From an uncultured Candidatus Binatia bacterium (GTDB taxonomy: Bacteria; Desulfobacterota; Binatia; UBA9968; JAJDTQ01): a DNA stretch of 64,000 nt. The notes under the pieces were generated by a model that was not told the origin of the DNA, searched no databases, and saw only the letters and a program-made list of their open reading frames with translations. Below are positions 13,643-60,850 of the stretch, piece by piece; positions within the stretch are counted from its first letter, which is position 1, and the number at the start of each line of letters is the position of its first letter. Location: contig OZ244617.1 in assembly GCA_965218305.1 (NCBI GenBank), forward strand, positions 3,058,983 through 3,122,982, written 5' to 3'. Position numbers and translations under genes: made by a program.

Positions 13643-14484
13643 GACTCCCGCATGGTCTCGCAGGCCGGCAACCGGAACAGCGCTCGGGCGTTGCGGCTGG
13701 CGGCGCCGGCGATTTCGTCAACGCCGACCCCCCGGACGCGGGCCAGGGTCTCGGCCACGAAACGGACGTAGGCGGGCTCGTTGCGCCGCCCCCGCCGGGG
13801 AACGGGCGCCAGGAACGGCGAGTCGGTCTCGATGAGCAGCCGGTCCAGGGGTGCCCAACGGGCGATATCCCTCAATGCTTCGGCGGTCTTGAAGGTGACG
13901 ATGCCCGAGAACGACAGGTAGAAGCCGAGGTCGAGGAACGTGCGCGCGGCCGCGGCGTCGCTGGTGAAGCAGTGGATCACCCCCTCCAGGCTTCCGCCGC
14001 CCCGGTTTCGAATCGTCTCCGCCACCTCGCGGTCCGACTCACGGTTGTGGACCACGATGGGCAACCGGGTCTCCACGGCCAGCGCCGCGAAGCGCTCGAA
14101 CATGTCTCGTTGCACCTGGCGGGGCGAGTGGTCGTAGTGGAAGTCGAGGCCGGTCTCGCCGATGGCGACGACCTTGGGATGCTCGGCGAGGCCGCGCATC
14201 CGGTCCATGGCGTCCGCGCTCACGTCCTTGGCGTCGTGCGGGTGCATTCCCACTGTGGCGTAGAGGTTCGCGTGTTCTTCCGCCAGGCGCACGGCCGCGT
14301 CGTTGGTGGAAAGATTCCCCGCCCCTCCGACGACGATCAGGGTTTCGACGCCCGCCTCCCGGGCCCGTGCCAGCACCTCATCGCGATCCTCGTCGAACTC
14401 CTCGGTCTGGATGTGGCAATGGGTGTCGATGAGGCGTCTGGATTCCCGCTTTCGCGGGAATGACGATGCGGGTGTCGGTGCCAT
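13639..14484 (-). CDS. tatD: TatD-family metal-dependent DNase/hydrolase
   Basis: IDTHCHIQ motif near the N-terminus and a TIM-barrel hydrolase pattern. Start set at MAPTPASS (24 aa before IDTHCH); the longer ORF would overlap metG. Stop/start ATGA overlap with aroE. Confidence 0.75.
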   Translation of the reverse strand: MAPTPASSFPRKRESRRLIDTHCHIQTEEFDEDRDEVLARAREAGVETLIVVGGAGNLSTNDAAVRLAEEHANLYATVGMHPHDAKDVSADAMDRMRGLAEHPKVVAIGETGLDFHYDHSPRQVQRDMFERFAALAVETRLPIVVHNRESDREVAETIRNRGGGSLEGVIHCFTSDAAAARTFLDLGFYLSFSGIVTFKTAEALRDIARWAPLDRLLIETDSPFLAPVPRRGRRNEPAYVRFVAETLARVRGVGVDEIAGAASRNARALFRLPACETMRES

Positions 14485-19039: not shown

Positions 19040-19155
19040 TCCCCTTCCCGTCATCCCGGACTTGATCCGGGATCCAGGAGGGGGGTTGGGGGCAAGGCAG
19101 ACCACCCCACGGCCACCCCTGGATCCCGGATCAAGTCCGGGATGACGGAGAGGTG
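19040..19155. repeat. Palindromic intergenic repeat element, copy A (complete): ~31-bp inverted arms GTCATCCCGGACTTGATCCGGGATCCAGGAG / CCTGGATCCCGGATCAAGTCCGGGATGAC separated by ~37 bp
   Basis: Left arm 19050-19080 and right arm 19118-19147 are perfect reverse complements. Further flanking complementarity extends out to 19040 and 19155. Confidence 0.85.
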
Positions 19156-21412: not shown

Positions 21413-21447
21413 AAAGGAACAATCGGCAGGAGGCGGGCGATCTTTAG

Positions 21448-21525
21448 CCCCGGATCAAGTCCGGGGTGACGTGGGGCGTCCGGGATGACGTGGGGCGAGC
21501 CCGGAATGACGCAGAGGGCGCTCGA
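21448..21525. repeat. Palindromic intergenic repeat element, copy B (partial: one arm CCCCGGATCAAGTCCGGGGTGAC plus degenerate GATGACGTGGGGCG tandem tail)
   Basis: Matches the right arm of copies A and D. Lies in the pilD-hydrolase intergenic region. Confidence 0.7.
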
Positions 21526-25683: not shown

Positions 25684-25992
25684 TCATGCCGGGGCTGGTT
25701 GCAAGGTGCGCTCGCGCAATGTGCCCATCTCTTCCCGCAGGTGGCTTACTTCCCCCCGCAGGTGGCTCACGTCTTGCCGCACCTCGCGCAACTCCCCCCG
25801 TAGTTCGGAAATGCGCTGGTCCACTTCGGTGAACCGCTGGTCCACCTGGTCGAACCGCCGGTCCACCTGGGCAAACCGCAGGTCCATCTCCCGATGCATG
25901 TCCGCCCGCAGGCTCTGTATCATTCTCGCCAACGCGAGACCCACGCCTACGACTGACAAGATGATGGCGATTGCCGAAATATCGACGTTCAT
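25684..25992 (-). CDS. Small N-terminally membrane-anchored coiled-coil protein with heptad repeats (DxRFxQV)x4
   Basis: One TM helix (ISAIAIILSVVGVGLALA), then RFAQVDRRFDQVDQRFTEVDQRISELRGELREVRQDVSHLRGEVSHLREE. Encoded by 21-bp tandem DNA repeats. Confidence 0.4.
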   Translation of the reverse strand: MNVDISAIAIILSVVGVGLALARMIQSLRADMHREMDLRFAQVDRRFDQVDQRFTEVDQRISELRGELREVRQDVSHLRGEVSHLREEMGTLRERTLQPAPA

Positions 25993-32054: not shown

Positions 32055-32212
32055 CATCCGCAATGCCCCTCCCCGTCATCCCGGGCTTGACCCGGGATCC
32101 AGGAGAGGGGAGGGGCCGTACCGGCAGACACGCCCCGCCACCACCCCTGGATCCCGAGTCAAGCCCGGGATGACGGGGAGGGGGGCCGGGATGTCGGGGA
32201 CTTGACCCGGAA
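32055..32212. repeat. Palindromic intergenic repeat element, copy C (complete variant with compensatory arm substitutions, plus an extra degenerate half-arm)
   Basis: Left arm GTCATCCCGGGCTTGACCCGGGATCCAGGAG (32067-32097). Right arm CCTGGATCCCGAGTCAAGCCCGGGATGAC (32138-32166). A third half-arm GTCGGGGACTTGACCCGGAATCACGG lies at ~32184-32210. The element sits between the coxM-like and coxS-like genes. Confidence 0.85.
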
Positions 32213-32250
32213 TCACGGATTGAACATTAGCGGGTTATTCCCACAGGACC

Positions 32251-54270: not shown

Positions 54271-55391
54271 TGTCCGTTCCCGTGACCGCAACCCCGACCT
54301 ATCCGCCCGGACAGCACCCGGACCTGCCGCCGCCGCCGGGCACCGCCGGCGTCATCGGCTGGTTGCGCGCCAACCTGTTCTCGTCGGTGTTCAACACGGC
54401 GCTGACCCTCGTTTCCATCTGGCTGATCTACGAGTTCGTCACCGCCGCCATCGACTGGTTCGTGCTGGACGCGGTGTGGGAAGCCGGCTCCCGCGTGGAT
54501 TGCCGCAAACAAGGCGACGGCGCCTGCTGGGCGGTCATCGCCACCCGCCTGGACCAGTTCGTCTACGGCTTCTATCCCGCGGCCCAACGCTGGCGCCCGG
54601 TGCTGACTTTCATCCTGCTCTTCCCCGCGCTGGCGCCGGTGCTGTTCGACCGTACGCCGTTCCGCCGTCAACTGTTGTGGTTCTCGCTGGCCTATCCCGC
54701 GGTAGGCGCCTGGCTTATCCACGGCGGCCTCGGTCTCCCGGTGGTGGACACGGACGCCTACGGCGGGTTTCTGCTCACCATGATCCTGGGCGTCACCGGC
54801 ATCGTGGCCTCTCTGCCCCTCGGCATCCTCCTCGCTCTGGGGCGGCAGTCGCGCCTGCTCGCCATCCGGGTGCTCAGCACGACCTTCATCGAGGTGCTGC
54901 GGGGCGTGCCGCTGATCACGCTGCTGTTCATCGCCCACACCATGCTCAATTACTTCCTGCACCCGGGGACCACCTTCGACCTCCTGATCCGGGTGCTCAT
55001 CATGGTCACCCTGTTCGCCTCGGCCTACCTCGCCGAGGCCGTCCGCGGCGGTTTACAAGCCATTTCCAAGGGCCAGTACGAGGCCGCCGACTCACTGGGG
55101 CTGTCCTACTGGAAGAAGACCTGGCTGATCACGCTGCCCCAGGCCCTCAAGATCGCCATACCCGGCATCGTCAACGTCTTCATCGGGCTTTACAAGGACA
55201 GCACGCTGGTAGTAATTATCGGGCTCTTGGACCCCTTGGGGGTGGCGCGGGCGGTGCTCGCTGACGCAAAGTGGAACGGTTTGTCCAACGAGACGTATCT
55301 TTTCATCGCGCTCTTCTTCTTCATCAGTTGCTTGGCCATGTCGCGTTACTCCCTTTGGCTTGAAGGACGTCTGAGCGTCGACAACCGGTAA
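54270..55391 (+). CDS. General L-amino acid ABC transporter permease (AapM-like)
   Basis: Start ATG overlaps the aapQ-like stop (TGATG). Pro-rich N-terminus and an EAA loop (YLAEAVRGG). Confidence 0.75.
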   Translation: MSVPVTATPTYPPGQHPDLPPPPGTAGVIGWLRANLFSSVFNTALTLVSIWLIYEFVTAAIDWFVLDAVWEAGSRVDCRKQGDGACWAVIATRLDQFVYGFYPAAQRWRPVLTFILLFPALAPVLFDRTPFRRQLLWFSLAYPAVGAWLIHGGLGLPVVDTDAYGGFLLTMILGVTGIVASLPLGILLALGRQSRLLAIRVLSTTFIEVLRGVPLITLLFIAHTMLNYFLHPGTTFDLLIRVLIMVTLFASAYLAEAVRGGLQAISKGQYEAADSLGLSYWKKTWLITLPQALKIAIPGIVNVFIGLYKDSTLVVIIGLLDPLGVARAVLADAKWNGLSNETYLFIALFFFISCLAMSRYSLWLEGRLSVDNR

Positions 55392-55400
55392 AGCATTTCC

Positions 55401-56189
55401 ATGGCCACCGTCGAAGAAACCACCCAGCGCATCCGATCCACCATCGATTCCTCCAAGGTGATGGTGGAGATCAACGGCATGCACAAATGGTTCGGCACCT
55501 TTCACGTGCTGAAGGACATCAACCTGCGGGTGACGGCCGGGGAACGCATCGTCATCTGCGGACCGTCGGGCTCCGGCAAGTCGACGCTGATTCGCTGCAT
55601 CAACCGGCTCGAGGTCCATCAGCAGGGGACGATCCAGGTGGACGGCACCGAGCTGACGCGCGACGTCAAGAACATCGAGCAGATCCGCTCCGAGGTGGGC
55701 ATGGTGTTCCAGCACTTCAACCTGTTCCCCCACCTCACGGTGCTGGAGAACTGCACCCTCGGCCCCATGTGGGTGCGCAAGCTGCCCAAGGGCGAGGCCG
55801 AAGAGATCGCCGTCCGCTACCTGGAGCGAGTGCAAATTCCCGAGCAGGCCGACAAGTTTCCCGGCCAGCTCTCCGGCGGCCAGCAGCAGCGGGTGGCCAT
55901 CGCGCGCTCGCTGTGCATGCAGCCCAAGATCATGCTGTTCGATGAGCCCACCTCCGCCCTCGACCCCGAGATGATCAAGGAAGTGCTCGACACCATGCTC
56001 GAGCTCGCCGAAACCGGCATGACCATGCTGGTGGTGACCCACGAGATGGGCTTCGCCCGCCGCGCCGCCGACCGGGTGATCTTCATGGACGGCGGCGAGA
56101 TCATCGAGGAGAACGCCCCCGAGCCGTTCTTCAATGACCCCCGGAACGAGCGCACCAAGCTGTTCCTGAGCCAGATCCTGTCCCACTGA
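55401..56189 (+). CDS. Polar amino acid ABC transporter ATP-binding protein (AapP/GlnQ-like)
   Basis: Walker [10 protein letters not shown], signature LSGGQQQRV and Walker [12 protein letters not shown]. Confidence 0.9.
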
Positions 56190-56220
56190 GGCGCGGGCCG
56201 CGCCGTCACCACGGCTCCGA

Positions 56221-56560
56221 TCCCGTCACCTCGGACTGTTCCCGCCACCCCGGACTTGTTCCCGCCACCCCGGACTTGTTCCCGCCACCCCGCAACCCCT
56301 CTCCGTCACCCCGGACTTGATCCGGGGTCCAGGAGCGGAGGGGCAAGAGGGACGACAAGCAACACGCCCCACCACCGCCCTCTGGACCCCGGATCAAGTC
56401 CGGGGTGACGGAGAGGTGGCCCGTGGGTGACGGAGAGGTGGCCCGTGGGTGACGGAGAGGTGGCCGGTGGGTGGCGGAGAGGTGACGCGGGGTGACGGAG
56501 AGGTGACGCGGGGTGACGGAGAGGTAAGACGGGGGTGACGGAGAGGTGGCGCGGGGATGG
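56221..56560. repeat. Composite repeat locus, copy D. Four tandem 20-bp units, then a complete palindromic element, then ~7 tandem 22-bp units (GGTGACGGAGAGGTGGCCCGTG).
   Basis: 20-bp units at 56221-56300. Left arm 56305-56335 and right arm 56382-56409. The 22-bp tandem array runs 56404-56555 and reiterates the element's terminal sequence. It generates spurious repetitive ORFs on the minus strand. Confidence 0.85.
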
Positions 56561-56647
56561 CGGATTCGGCGCGACGACGGTGCCTGAATTTCACGGGCTT
56601 CTGTGTTACGTTCGTTGAATTCTTTGCCGTAAAGGGGCCGCGAGCAC

Positions 56648-57817
56648 ATGTCCACAACGTTAATCAAGAACATCGGGACTCTGGTAACCGGGATGCTCGA
56701 GGATCCCCTCCGCGACGCCGACTCGATTCTCGTGGCCGACGGGGTGATCCGGGAGGTCGGAAACGGGCTGAGCGGCGGCGCCGACCGCACCATCGACGCC
56801 AACGGAACCACGGTGATCCCGGGCCTCATCGACTCGCATTCCCACCCCACCTTCGGCAACTTCACGCCGGCGCAGAACTCCATCGGATGGATCACGCACT
56901 ACATGCACGGCGGGGTCACCTCCATCATTTCCGCGGGGGAGCTGCACGTGCCGGGGCTGCCGCTGCCGCCGGATCCGCTGTGCGCGGTGTCGTTGGCCAT
57001 CGTCGCCAAGCGGTGTTGGGACAACCTCCGGCCCACCGGCGTCCGGGTGCACGGCGGCACGCTGCTGCTGGTGCCGGGCCTGGAAGAGAAGGACTTCGAC
57101 ACCATCGCCGAGGCCGGTATCCGCCTGGTGAAGTTCATCTTCTACGACTACAGCCTGTTGCCCAACGGCGAAGCGGAGCGCTACGTGAAATGGGCCCGGG
57201 CGCGGGACATCAAGGTCAAGATCCACTCGGGCGGCGTTTCCCGTTCGGGAGTCAGCCAGGTGGCGGGCGTGGACATCGTCAAGGCCATCGATCCCGATGT
57301 CATCGGCCACAGCACCGGCGGCCCCATCCCCATGCCGGAGGAGGATCTCCGCCGCATCGTGGCCGAGACCGAGTACTACGTCGAGATCTGCACTTCCGGC
57401 AACCTGCGCATGGGAATGGTGCTGGCCGACGCGGTCAGGCAGGCCGGCGCCGAGGCCCGGGTGCTGGTGGGCACCGACACTCCGGGCGGCACCGGGGTGG
57501 TGCCCCGGGGCATCCTGCGCGAGATCTGCTTCCTCGCATCCCTGGGGGGCTTCGCGCCGGAACACGCCGTGGCCATGGCCACCGGCAACACGGGGCGCGC
57601 CCACGGACTCGACCTCGGCATCGTCGCGGAAGGGAAGCCCGCGGACCTCGTGATCATGGACCGCATCACCGGCTCGGTATCCCGGGATGCGCTGGATTCG
57701 TTCGCCAAGGGCGACCTTCCGGGTATCTCGGTGGTGATGATCGACGGTGAGCTCACCGTCGACGGCCGAAGCCAACAGACGCCGCCGCCCGAGCGGGGCG
57801 TGGTTATCAGCTCATAG
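56648..57817 (+). CDS. Amidohydrolase-family metal-dependent hydrolase
   Basis: N-terminal metal-ligand motif GLIDSHSHP and a composite-domain/TIM-barrel architecture. 389 aa. Confidence 0.7.
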   Translation: MSTTLIKNIGTLVTGMLEDPLRDADSILVADGVIREVGNGLSGGADRTIDANGTTVIPGLIDSHSHPTFGNFTPAQNSIGWITHYMHGGVTSIISAGELHVPGLPLPPDPLCAVSLAIVAKRCWDNLRPTGVRVHGGTLLLVPGLEEKDFDTIAEAGIRLVKFIFYDYSLLPNGEAERYVKWARARDIKVKIHSGGVSRSGVSQVAGVDIVKAIDPDVIGHSTGGPIPMPEEDLRRIVAETEYYVEICTSGNLRMGMVLADAVRQAGAEARVLVGTDTPGGTGVVPRGILREICFLASLGGFAPEHAVAMATGNTGRAHGLDLGIVAEGKPADLVIMDRITGSVSRDALDSFAKGDLPGISVVMIDGELTVDGRSQQTPPPERGVVISS

Positions 57818-57950
57818 GAACGGGTTTTTTGCCAGGCGACAGGGTCAAATCTTGAACTTGGGTAAAACGTCCATAACCCATTATAAACATTGATAAATAG
57901 CTATGACCGGCGGCATGACGCACCTGGCCATGGCGCAAGGAGGTTTCCCG

Positions 57951-58928
57951 GTGAGCTCACTACAATACGGCGTCGGACTCTTCCCCACGGAATCCGTTTC
58001 GCGGATCATCCAGCTCGGCAAGCAGGCGGAAGAACTGGCCTTCAGTCATGTCTGGGTCGGCGACTCGCACCTCATCTGGCGCGAGGCCTTCGTGAACATG
58101 GCCGCGGTGGCGTTGAACACCTCGAAAGTGATCATCGGCACCGGTGTGACCAATCCGGTGACCCGGCACCCTTCGGTGTTGGCCAGCGCCTACGCCACCC
58201 TGGACGAGATGGCGCCGGGCCGGTTCGCCGTGGGCATCGGCCTGGGCGACAGCTCGCTGGAAACCATGGGCCGCAAGCAGGCACGCCTGGCGGACTTCGA
58301 GGAAGCGGTGGCGCAGATGCGCGCGGTCATCGAGGGCGGCGAGGCCGAGCTGGAGAGCGGCAAGATCCGCCTCAACTTCGCGCAGAACCGCAAGATCCCC
58401 TTCTACGCGGCCGCCAGCGGGCCGAAGATGCTGGAGCTGTCCGGCCGGATCGCCGACGGCGTCATCATCCTCGTGGGCGTGGATTCCGGTGCCGTCGAAA
58501 GGGCTGTCGAGCGGGTCGCGGCCGGCGCCGAGTCGGCCGGCCGCAAGCTTTCCGACATCGACCTGGTGCTGTGGGTGCCGTGCGCGGTTTCCGAGGGGCC
58601 CGGGGCCAAGGATGCGGTCAAGGCCCACGTGGCCCGGGTCATCGCCCATCCGCTGCCCTTCACCCTGGACGAGCGCGAGCAGAAGGTCCTGGTCGACATC
58701 CACCAAGCCTACGACTACTACCAGCACATGGACCAGAGGGCCGCCCAGGCGCGCGTGATCCCCGACTGGCTGGTGGACAAGTTCGCGGTCGCCGGCACCC
58801 CGGACGAGTGTCACGCCAAGGTCCAGGAGCTCAAACAGAGCGCCATCAACCAGGTGGCGATCATTCCCTACAACGTGGGCGACGCCGACCGCGGCGAGAC
58901 CCTGCGGCTGTTTGCCGGAGCCGTGTAG
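57951..58928 (+). CDS. LLM-class (luciferase-like) flavin/F420-dependent oxidoreductase
   Basis: YGVGLFPTE...HVWVGDSH...GIGLGDS pattern. GTG start with a perfect AAGGAGG RBS 8 nt upstream. Confidence 0.7.
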   Translation: MSSLQYGVGLFPTESVSRIIQLGKQAEELAFSHVWVGDSHLIWREAFVNMAAVALNTSKVIIGTGVTNPVTRHPSVLASAYATLDEMAPGRFAVGIGLGDSSLETMGRKQARLADFEEAVAQMRAVIEGGEAELESGKIRLNFAQNRKIPFYAAASGPKMLELSGRIADGVIILVGVDSGAVERAVERVAAGAESAGRKLSDIDLVLWVPCAVSEGPGAKDAVKAHVARVIAHPLPFTLDEREQKVLVDIHQAYDYYQHMDQRAAQARVIPDWLVDKFAVAGTPDECHAKVQELKQSAINQVAIIPYNVGDADRGETLRLFAGAV

Positions 58929-60783: not shown

Positions 60784-60850
60784 GGCCCCGGACTTGATCC
60801 GGGGCCGGGATGACGGGAGAAGGGGTCCCGCGGTGGGCTCCCGCCACCCA
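60784..60850. repeat. Palindromic intergenic repeat element, copy E (partial/degenerate: CCCCGGACTTGATCCGGGG + GGGATGACGGGAGAAGGGG)
   Basis: Shares the arm core with copies A-D. Located in the divergent intergenic region upstream of the M20 peptidase gene. Confidence 0.65.

Follow-up and report, generated by a model that had tools for sequence, protein, structure and literature searches.

Tandem arrays of half-REPs on both sides of a CGTC-tagged REP dimer in a Candidatus Binatia genome

Repetitive extragenic palindromes (REPs) of the CGTC-tagged class (Di Nocera, De Gregorio & Rocco 2013, BMC Genomics 14:522) consist of an unpaired CGTC tag (variants TGTC and CCTC), a stem of 8-9 bp with an A-T pair at the first position and usually at the second too, a loop of 4-5 nt and a 3-nt tail that fits CCA; family 2 combines an 8-bp stem with a 5-nt loop (PMC3733652). 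Most of them occur as 'HH' dimers, with the tags outside and spacers of 20-100 bp, and sit downstream of genes; no dedicated transposase is known for them, and their clusters are rare, with associated repeats that were not examined in detail (PMC3733652). Here we describe a composite repeat locus in a 64,000-nt stretch of DNA (hereafter the window) from an uncultured Candidatus Binatia bacterium (contig OZ244617.1), in which a palindromic REP dimer stands between two tandem arrays, downstream of a gene for an amino-acid transporter ATPase (aapP-like).

The palindrome has the tag, stem, loop, tail and head-to-head homodimer arrangement of the CGTC-tagged REPs. Like them it lies downstream of a coding region, between co-directional genes and with no adjacent transposase, and the same arm sequence is found in sphingomonads, which are among the hosts listed in PMC3733652. 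It differs from them in that a tandem array of truncated REPs adjoins each tag of the dimer, and in that the host belongs to an uncultured Deltaproteobacteria/Candidatus Binatia lineage, not to the alphaproteobacteria.

REPINs (Bertels & Rainey 2011) are likewise two inverted REPs with a short spacer that form one long hairpin, an arrangement also found here; they share with this locus, too, a presence that varies between genomes at orthologous sites and higher-order arrangements built by a second mechanism. REPIN clusters, however, repeat whole REPINs together with flanking sequence, whereas the unit of the present arrays is half a REP, ~21 bp. REPINs also carry a GTAG tag and are linked to a RAYT transposase, whereas the tag here is CGTC. 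Transposase domains were absent from the neighbouring genes of two related loci (L001 and L050); the window was not fully scanned for a RAYT-like gene. Because the tag is not GTAG and a RAYT is neither known nor shown, the locus is REPIN-like in form and lies outside the REPIN-RAYT systems as defined.

Three further kinds of repeat invite comparison. The bacterial interspersed mosaic elements of Escherichia coli, type BIME-2, are also REP-derived, intergenic arrays of strain-variable length and strong secondary structure, often at the 3' ends of operons; their units are complete REP pairs in alternating orientation, ~80-100 bp long, whereas ours are direct copies of a truncated REP. Bacterial minisatellites, or variable-number tandem repeats (VNTRs), share the 20-22-bp units, the differing unit numbers in close strains and the greater likeness of neighbouring units, but here the unit is no arbitrary sequence: it is the terminus of an adjoining dispersed palindromic repeat, and arrays of the same kind are found beside further copies and in further taxa. 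CRISPR arrays resemble the locus in their short, regularly spaced direct repeats and nearby partial dyad symmetry; they differ from it in that it has no unique spacers, units that are too short and no nearby cas genes. A limited literature search returned descriptions of whole-REP and REPIN tandems and none of tag-side half-REP arrays. The REP itself is of a known kind; its arrangement with half-REP arrays appears to be new.

The REP dimer and its flanking half-REP arrays

The core of the locus is an inverted repeat of 35 nt with 100% complementarity (56298-56332 and 56382-56416), whose arms are separated by a 49-nt spacer (56333-56381) that is the same in L001, a relative, and nearly the same in a second relative, L096. 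The left arm, on the plus strand, consists of a REP and its 6-nt outer terminus, CCTCTC; the right arm, on the minus strand, contains the second REP. Each arm is also a small hairpin in itself, CCCCGGA-CTTGA-TCCGGGG after CGTC, a feature absent from the original prediction. The left REP (56304-56331, plus strand) reads CGTC, ACCCCGGA, CTTGA, TCCGGGGT, CCA, and the right REP (56383-56410, minus strand) has the same anatomy. The tags, CGTC at 56304-56307 and GACG at 56407-56410 for the other strand, are unpaired; the stem ACCCCGGA/TCCGGGGT pairs at all eight positions, beginning with A-T; the loop CTTGA has 5 nt and the tail is CCA. The second stem pair is C-G in the copy at 56304 and T-A in the copy at 19049. 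An anatomy scan of the window detected eight canonical REPs, compared with 0-1 in 20 shuffles, and six of the eight form three head-to-head dimers. The dimer at 56304 has its tags outside and a 49-nt spacer. Since all four defining sequence features are present, the palindrome belongs to the CGTC-tagged REPs: it is a head-to-head dimer of 'CGTC-2' anatomy, of a family already described.

Arrays were called with Tandem Repeats Finder (TRF), and degenerate copies were counted from the sequence by eye. On the left, TRF reported an array at 56221-56292 with a period of 20, 3.7 copies, 94% matches and a score of 123 (unit TCCCGCCACCCCGGACTTGT); on the right, an array at 56403-56564 with a period of 22, 7.5 copies, 87% matches and a score of 205 (unit GGGTGACGGAGAGGTGGCCCGT). 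The original prediction, a palindrome between tandem arrays of four and about seven repeats, was thus a fair description. With degenerate copies included there are six left tags (CGTC or CGCC), spaced 19-21 bp apart: five belong to the half-REP units that make up the left array (56198-56303, plus strand; tags at 56204, 56224, 56243, 56263 and 56283) and the sixth, at 56304, is that of the left REP. The two outermost left units are degenerate. The right array (56403-56564, plus strand) is built of a degenerate stem arm, the tag GACG and the outer terminus GAGAGGTG, and carries eight tags (GACG or GGCG; 56407, 56429, 56451, 56473, 56494, 56515, 56537 and 56559) at a spacing of 21-22 bp. Allowing up to two mismatches, the window contains GGTGACGGAGAGGTGG nine times, whereas shuffles predict 0.09. 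The right array accounts for seven of the nine matches and a further copy of the element, at 19141, for one, which upholds the earlier proposal that the 22-bp unit is the extended right terminus of the element. The composite repeat locus is far beyond chance.

A left unit, TCC-CGCC-ACCCCGGA-CTTG, comprises ~4 outer nt, the tag, the entire 5' arm and 4 loop nt; a right unit, (C)GNGGGGT-GACG-GAGAGGTG, comprises a 3' arm in degenerate form, followed by the tag and by the outer terminus (8 nt) that recurs in the family copy at 19141. Array units are therefore outer half-REPs (outer terminus, tag and tag-proximal stem arm) that cannot fold alone, and the inner half, the tail-proximal arm with CCA, is never reiterated in them. 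Private variants are common to adjacent units: CGCC marks three units of the left array, and the linkers TGGCCCGT or TGACGCG recur through runs of units in the right one. Such sharing between neighbours points to local duplication. Degeneration runs outward, the outermost units being the most decayed. On the right, the outermost unit, GCGCGGGGATGGCGGATTCGG (56550-56569, plus strand), is an older half-REP remnant that also occurs, as GGAATGACGGATTCG, in the type B alleles described below.

Along the plus strand, C predominates to the left and G to the right (the GC skew passes from -0.3 to +0.5), and the units of the two arrays are partly complementary to each other, at 83-88% over arms of 30-32 nt. 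The region 56190-56650 therefore folds as one long imperfect hairpin, with a predicted energy of -273 kcal/mol and z = -7.7 relative to shuffles.

Search for similar arrays at other copies of the element, as had been suggested, was productive. Within the 64 kb, tag-side half-REP arrays occur at three of five REP loci. Besides the composite, these are a single REP with an array at 21444-21511 (minus strand; TRF 21459-21511, 19 bp, ~2-3 copies) and a head-to-head dimer at 32074-32218 (REPs at 32074 and 32148) with a right tag-side array at 32164-32218 (21 bp x2.6). The dimer of the same family at 19049-19147 (REPs at 19049 and 19120) and the single REP at 14439 have none. Four of the eight TRF tandem-repeat regions in the window are REP tag-side arrays, as are seven of the eight arrays scoring above 100 in 444 kb (the window plus fetched loci); no tail-side array near a REP was found in the same 444 kb. 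Among 129 non-redundant REPs, a direct copy of the tag plus 5 nt within 70 nt lay outside the tag in 16 cases and beyond the tail in one, a polarity that is significant by Fisher's test (p = 2e-4).

The same arm sequence is present in plasmids of Sphingobium, Novosphingobium and Sphingomonas, and a genome scan with the REP terminus returned 46 loci, mostly from sphingomonads, with others from Candidatus Binatia metagenome-assembled genomes (MAGs), Limnohabitans, Rhizobium and several further MAGs. Tag-side arrays were seen in a Binatia MAG (L036, 21 bp x4.7), Limnohabitans (L009, 22 bp x3.5), a Propionicimonas MAG (L031, 21 bp x3), an Alphaproteobacteria MAG (L043, 21 bp x2), a type B allele from an ENA metagenome contig (L092, 20 bp x3), a JGI metagenome contig with another REP sequence type (L081, 23 bp x3) and Sphingobium indicum pSRL2 (L003, 15 bp x2). 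One metagenome contig, L055, has a left array (20 bp x3), a head-to-head dimer and a right array (20 bp x5), and is an independent case of the two-sided architecture. Head-to-tail arrays of whole REPs, with periods of 42-44 bp, occur in L022 and L028. A scan for the array pattern mainly brought up unrelated repeats, of which some lie in low-GC contigs and others look coding; the only clearly informative loci were L055, L069, L081 and L083.

Several other observations were made on the REP and on repeats of similar period. A 21-nt REP terminus, AAGTCCGGGRTGACGGAGAGG, is identical in a Rikenellaceae MAG (L011), a Thermodesulfobacteriota MAG (L021), the Propionicimonas MAG, Limnohabitans and three Ca. 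Binatia MAGs (L022, L028 and L036), and so in contigs of widely differing phyla, one of them a low-GC Bacteroidota contig. Such a distribution may be due to mis-binned contigs or to horizontal spread either of the REP or of its maker. A plasmid of Novosphingobium capsulatum (L002, 1501-1590) carries the same REP as a tail-to-tail dimer, tags inward, with an AT-rich spacer of 28 nt; this arrangement is rare for CGTC REPs (PMC3733652). At 60786-60825 of the window, a perfect CCCCGGACTTGATCCGGGG hairpin with no recognisable 5' tag is followed directly by CCGGGATGACGGGAGAAGG, an extra outer half-REP with the opposite loop orientation; the structure may be an internally deleted dimer. Long arrays of the GTGACGGAG type in high-GC metagenome contigs (L077, ~800-1000; L068 and L074; 21 bp x~9 and 18 bp x~7) adjoin no canonical REP hairpin and may be orphan half-REP arrays. 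At 25730-25886 the window also has two 21-bp tandem repeats side by side (2.5 and 3.5 copies), which are unrelated to REPs and may be a coding heptad-type repeat.

Alleles of the locus in related genomes

Profile matches bear out the flanking genes originally named. Upstream is a GlnQ/AapP-like polar amino-acid ABC transporter ATPase gene (55401-56189, plus strand; NCBIfam GlnQ, 6e-93; Pfam ABC_tran, 1e-40) ending in TGA at 56187-56189, which in L001 is preceded by genes for an SBP_bac_3 protein and two BPD_transp_1 permeases. Downstream, after an intergenic gap of 458 nt, is an amidohydrolase gene (Amidohydro_1, 'enamidase'-like; 56648-57817, plus strand) with its ATG at 56648; close homologues of its product carry the labels Deltaproteobacteria or Candidatus Binatia MAGs.

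When AapP and the members of its 90% cluster were looked up as exact proteins, ENA metagenome assemblies yielded another 24 copies of the intergenic region, 23 of which show aapP-to-amidohydrolase synteny. Two more distant amidohydrolase homologues were also looked up; in their loci (L052 and L053, 79-84% identity) the upstream gene is a different one and a REP is lacking. The window's own amidohydrolase and LLM oxidoreductase proteins gave no record on exact look-up, and a scan of JGI metagenomes for the locus-specific spacer returned no match.

By BLAST, homology between the window and its relatives ends at 56192-56198, only 3-9 nt past the aapP stop, and restarts at 56550 (in L050, L051 and L092) or at 56583. 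The interval between these breakpoints is occupied by three unrelated palindromic cassettes. Type A, the CGTC-2 head-to-head dimer, is found in the window, in L001 (97% nucleotide identity) and in L096. Type B, a head-to-head dimer of CGTC-1 REPs (loop GAAA) enclosed by a 31-nt inverted repeat with half-REP-like ends, is carried by L050, L051, L092 and L099-L102 (flank identity ~92-94.5%). Type C is another long palindrome (CGCCCTTCGACTTCGCTTCGCTACGC..., ~1990-2250) in L086-L091, L093-L095, L097 and L098, with strain-specific deletions and a central loop that is flipped in L091 relative to L086. In relatives that carry the two other cassettes, the flanking genes are 92-95% identical to those of the window. 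Predicted folds of every cassette type, A to C, are much stronger than those of shuffled sequence (z from -3 to -14). The site, which immediately follows the stop codon of an amino-acid ABC transporter operon, is hypervariable.

Within type A, unit number changes around a core that is identical or nearly so. The window has two perfect left units and seven right units of the form G[AG]CGGAGAGG, L001 has one and six, and L096 has none of either. Copy-number polymorphism, the outcome foreseen for these arrays, is thus present, and the opposite outcome, an invariant copy number together with coding constraint, clearly is not. L096 has a variant sequence for its right REP, and a type-B-like flank follows immediately. 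In the window, the right unit farthest from the hairpin (GGGATGGCGGATTCGG, from 56553) aligns with the type B half-REP GGAATGACGGATTCG, which identifies that unit as an older remnant and places the newer units between that remnant and the hairpin.

Half-REP duplication was also seen among near-identical type B alleles from different samples. The half-REP CCCCGCTCCGGCATCCCCGCG is duplicated at ~2040-2085 in L100 and at the same place in L101, by 21 bp in the former and 19 bp in the latter, and is single in L099, L102 and L050. The duplicated unit, CCCCGCTC-CGGC-ATCCCCGCG, again comprises outer terminus, tag and arm. From their sequences these duplications look like fresh, independent seeding events.

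On the right, variability stops at a leader of ~65 nt (GCCTGAATTTCACGGGCTTCTGTGTTACGTTCGTTGAATTCTTTGCCGTAAAGGGGCCGCGAGCAC; 56582-56647, plus strand), which lies outside the repeat and is kept in all alleles. L052 retains it from 56582 to the start codon at 56648 despite its different upstream gene, and L053 retains its first part only (~30 nt, CCTGAATTTC...GTTAGGTTC). Since it is conserved in these two loci without a REP, the leader sets the true right limit of the repeat locus. It had no Rfam match and is probably the promoter, operator or leader of the amidohydrolase gene itself.

Two long minus-strand open reading frames (ORFs) that the arrays create had been called spurious, and our results agree. 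One (56206-56895, 229 aa) spans the repeats and overlaps the real start of the amidohydrolase gene; the other (56394-56657) has 87 aa. Both exist, and neither these nor a third minus-strand ORF (55817-56248) matched an NCBIfam or Pfam family. Allele indels of 19, 8, 1 and 20 bp are not multiples of 3 and break the frame, and the array periods, 20 and 22, are not multiples of 3 either. Because of the frame-breaking indels and the lack of protein family matches, the repeat stretch is, as judged from these comparisons, non-coding, and a protein-coding tandem repeat was rejected as an explanation on the same grounds together with the periods.

Scans for functional elements gave little at the composite itself. 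An Rfam search of 55000-58000 at a permissive E-value returned only chance miRNA-like matches to the hairpin (E >= 0.46). A scan for sigma-70 promoters and intrinsic terminators found nothing at the composite; the single terminator-consensus match, at 56582-56598, falls within the leader, and chance would account for it. An intrinsic terminator was rejected as the identity of the composite, which has no GC-rich hairpin followed by a T-run. A CRISPR array was rejected too, as it had been originally: the units abut, the 7-8-nt linkers are themselves repeated so that there are no unique spacers, and the neighbouring genes encode a transporter and a hydrolase rather than Cas proteins.

How the arrays may have arisen

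We put a probability of roughly 0.65 on the reading that the locus is a REP hot spot: a head-to-head CGTC-2 dimer whose outer halves have been amplified in tandem, prone to slippage and with at most a generic hairpin role. Once two direct copies exist, unit number would shift by slipped-strand mispairing or unequal exchange. The first extra copy could come about in two ways: a newer REP may land beside an older half-REP, as appears to be the case for the outermost right unit here, or a local duplication of ~20 bp may occur at the foot of the hairpin. The arrays would then have no sequence-specific function. At most, the imperfect hairpin of ~370 nt might act as REPs do, as a 3' stem-loop of the operon transcript or as an insulator between the two genes. 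Three unrelated cassettes occupy one site in one population, and the only thing common to them all is a strong hairpin after the operon stop; such a hairpin would fit the generic REP roles of stabilising transcript 3' ends or of attenuation. Two simpler accounts of the unit were set aside. Hairpin length (8 + 5 + 8 = 21 nt) was rejected as the cause of the period, since it would duplicate whole hairpins, and a model of nested insertion only was downgraded because adjacent units carry common private variants.

A number of observations weigh against this reading. The step that would form the arrays is inferred, and the copy numbers derive from metagenome assemblies, some of low coverage (labelled 9-14x). 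The duplications in L100 and L101 have junction microhomology of at most 1 nt, which is atypical of classical slippage. The 131-nt core is identical in the window and L001 although the flanking genes differ by 3%, a pattern that gene conversion, constraint or recent spread could produce. Almost all loci with at least three copies have units of 19-23 bp, while the way the unit is divided varies (0-4 nt of loop, 5-8 nt of arm and 4-11 nt of outer part); constancy of length despite a varying split is not predicted by simple slippage. Unit length follows partly from anatomy, as units longer than ~23 bp would take in the second arm and become whole REPs, the 42-44-bp class, and longer units may misalign more stably. 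The sharpness of the 19-23-bp range is beyond what these factors explain. The original prediction had ascribed the arrays to slippage or reiteration seeded by the end of the element; reiteration of the element's own termini stands, on the private variants common to neighbours, and slippage as the seeding step is not fully shown, given the near-absent microhomology and the constant unit length. The arrays may have been seeded by a step other than classical slippage.

The best-surviving alternative takes these points as its starting place. The units could be scars, either of repeated self-targeted insertion, in which a new REP dimer enters the loop or stem of a resident REP and the long direct repeats then collapse to leave, beyond each new copy, one more outer half-REP, or of a REP-processing nuclease that nicks at a fixed distance on either side of the tag, with fill-in duplicating the segment between. 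Either version would account for units that always consist of outer terminus, tag and tag-proximal arm and never of the inner half, for their constant length of ~20-22 bp, for the new 19- and 21-bp duplications nearly without microhomology, and for a site that takes different palindromic cassettes. The oldest-looking units also stand farthest out, that at the right-hand edge being an ancestral half-REP displaced from the hairpin. However, CGCC in three adjacent left units and the private right linkers indicate local copying rather than independent arrivals. Left units include 4 loop and 4 outer nt, right units no loop and 8-10 outer nt, a difference unexpected from a single fixed insertion point. 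Further, no transposase is known for CGTC REPs (PMC3733652) and none was found in the neighbouring genes. We consider this account unlikely, if worth keeping in view.

Regular spacing raises another possibility, that the arrays are a phased protein-binding platform of iteron-like or nucleoid-protein sites, with a GTGACG tag at intervals of two helical turns, and are under selection for some regulatory or topological task in the gap between the genes. Tags are 19-21 bp apart on the left and 21-22 bp on the right, a ~21-bp period and its multiples 42 and 63 appear in unrelated loci, and binding of gyrase, IHF and Pol I has been reported for E. coli BIMEs (PMC2817692). Among strains that share the flanking genes, however, the right units number seven, six or none, or the cassette is another one altogether; the units degenerate outward; no regulator gene is adjacent; and a two-turn period also follows from half-REP anatomy (8 + 4 + 6-10 nt). 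Such a platform is improbable.

It is very improbable that the arrays and their copy numbers are assembly artefacts of a repeat-rich intergenic region. Some assemblies are labelled 9-14x coverage, and the contigs L089, L090 and L093-L095 break or hold runs of N exactly at the locus. Against this, the same core and unit variants appear in independent assemblies from different samples (the window, L001 and L096), and analogous arrays are present in isolate genomes (Limnohabitans parvus and Sphingobium indicum). Finally, the notion that the repeats encode a repetitive protein (the minus-strand ORF at 56206-56895) or a CRISPR-like or structured RNA gene, prompted by the long minus-strand ORFs and the strong folding, can be dismissed on the absent Pfam/NCBIfam matches, the frame-breaking indels, the overlap of the amidohydrolase start, the periods that are not multiples of 3, the lack of unique spacers and a best Rfam E-value of 0.46.

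The locus is of practical use as a ready strain-typing marker; it is also a breakpoint for short-read assembly and, in a high-GC genome, gives rise to spurious ORF calls. Its wider interest lies in the origin and spread of CGTC REPs, for which the defining paper found no dedicated transposase. Amplification of the tag half is recurrent, polar and length-constrained, and so provides a countable signature that can be mined genome-wide to set slippage against enzyme models. If the arrays are merely products of slippage, they are an example of REP-driven intergenic hypervariability only; the recurrent unit length of 20-22 bp is the one feature that deserves follow-up, the rest being mostly ordinary. 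A bolder and, in our judgement, doubtful proposal is that half-REP arrays are the footprints of an active process specific to CGTC REPs, whether self-targeted insertion or ruler-like nicking by a nuclease ~20 bp apart around the tag. This would explain the fixed composition of the units, their 19-23-bp length in unrelated taxa and the missing microhomology and, if true, would give a first mechanistic handle on how CGTC REPs are made and spread.

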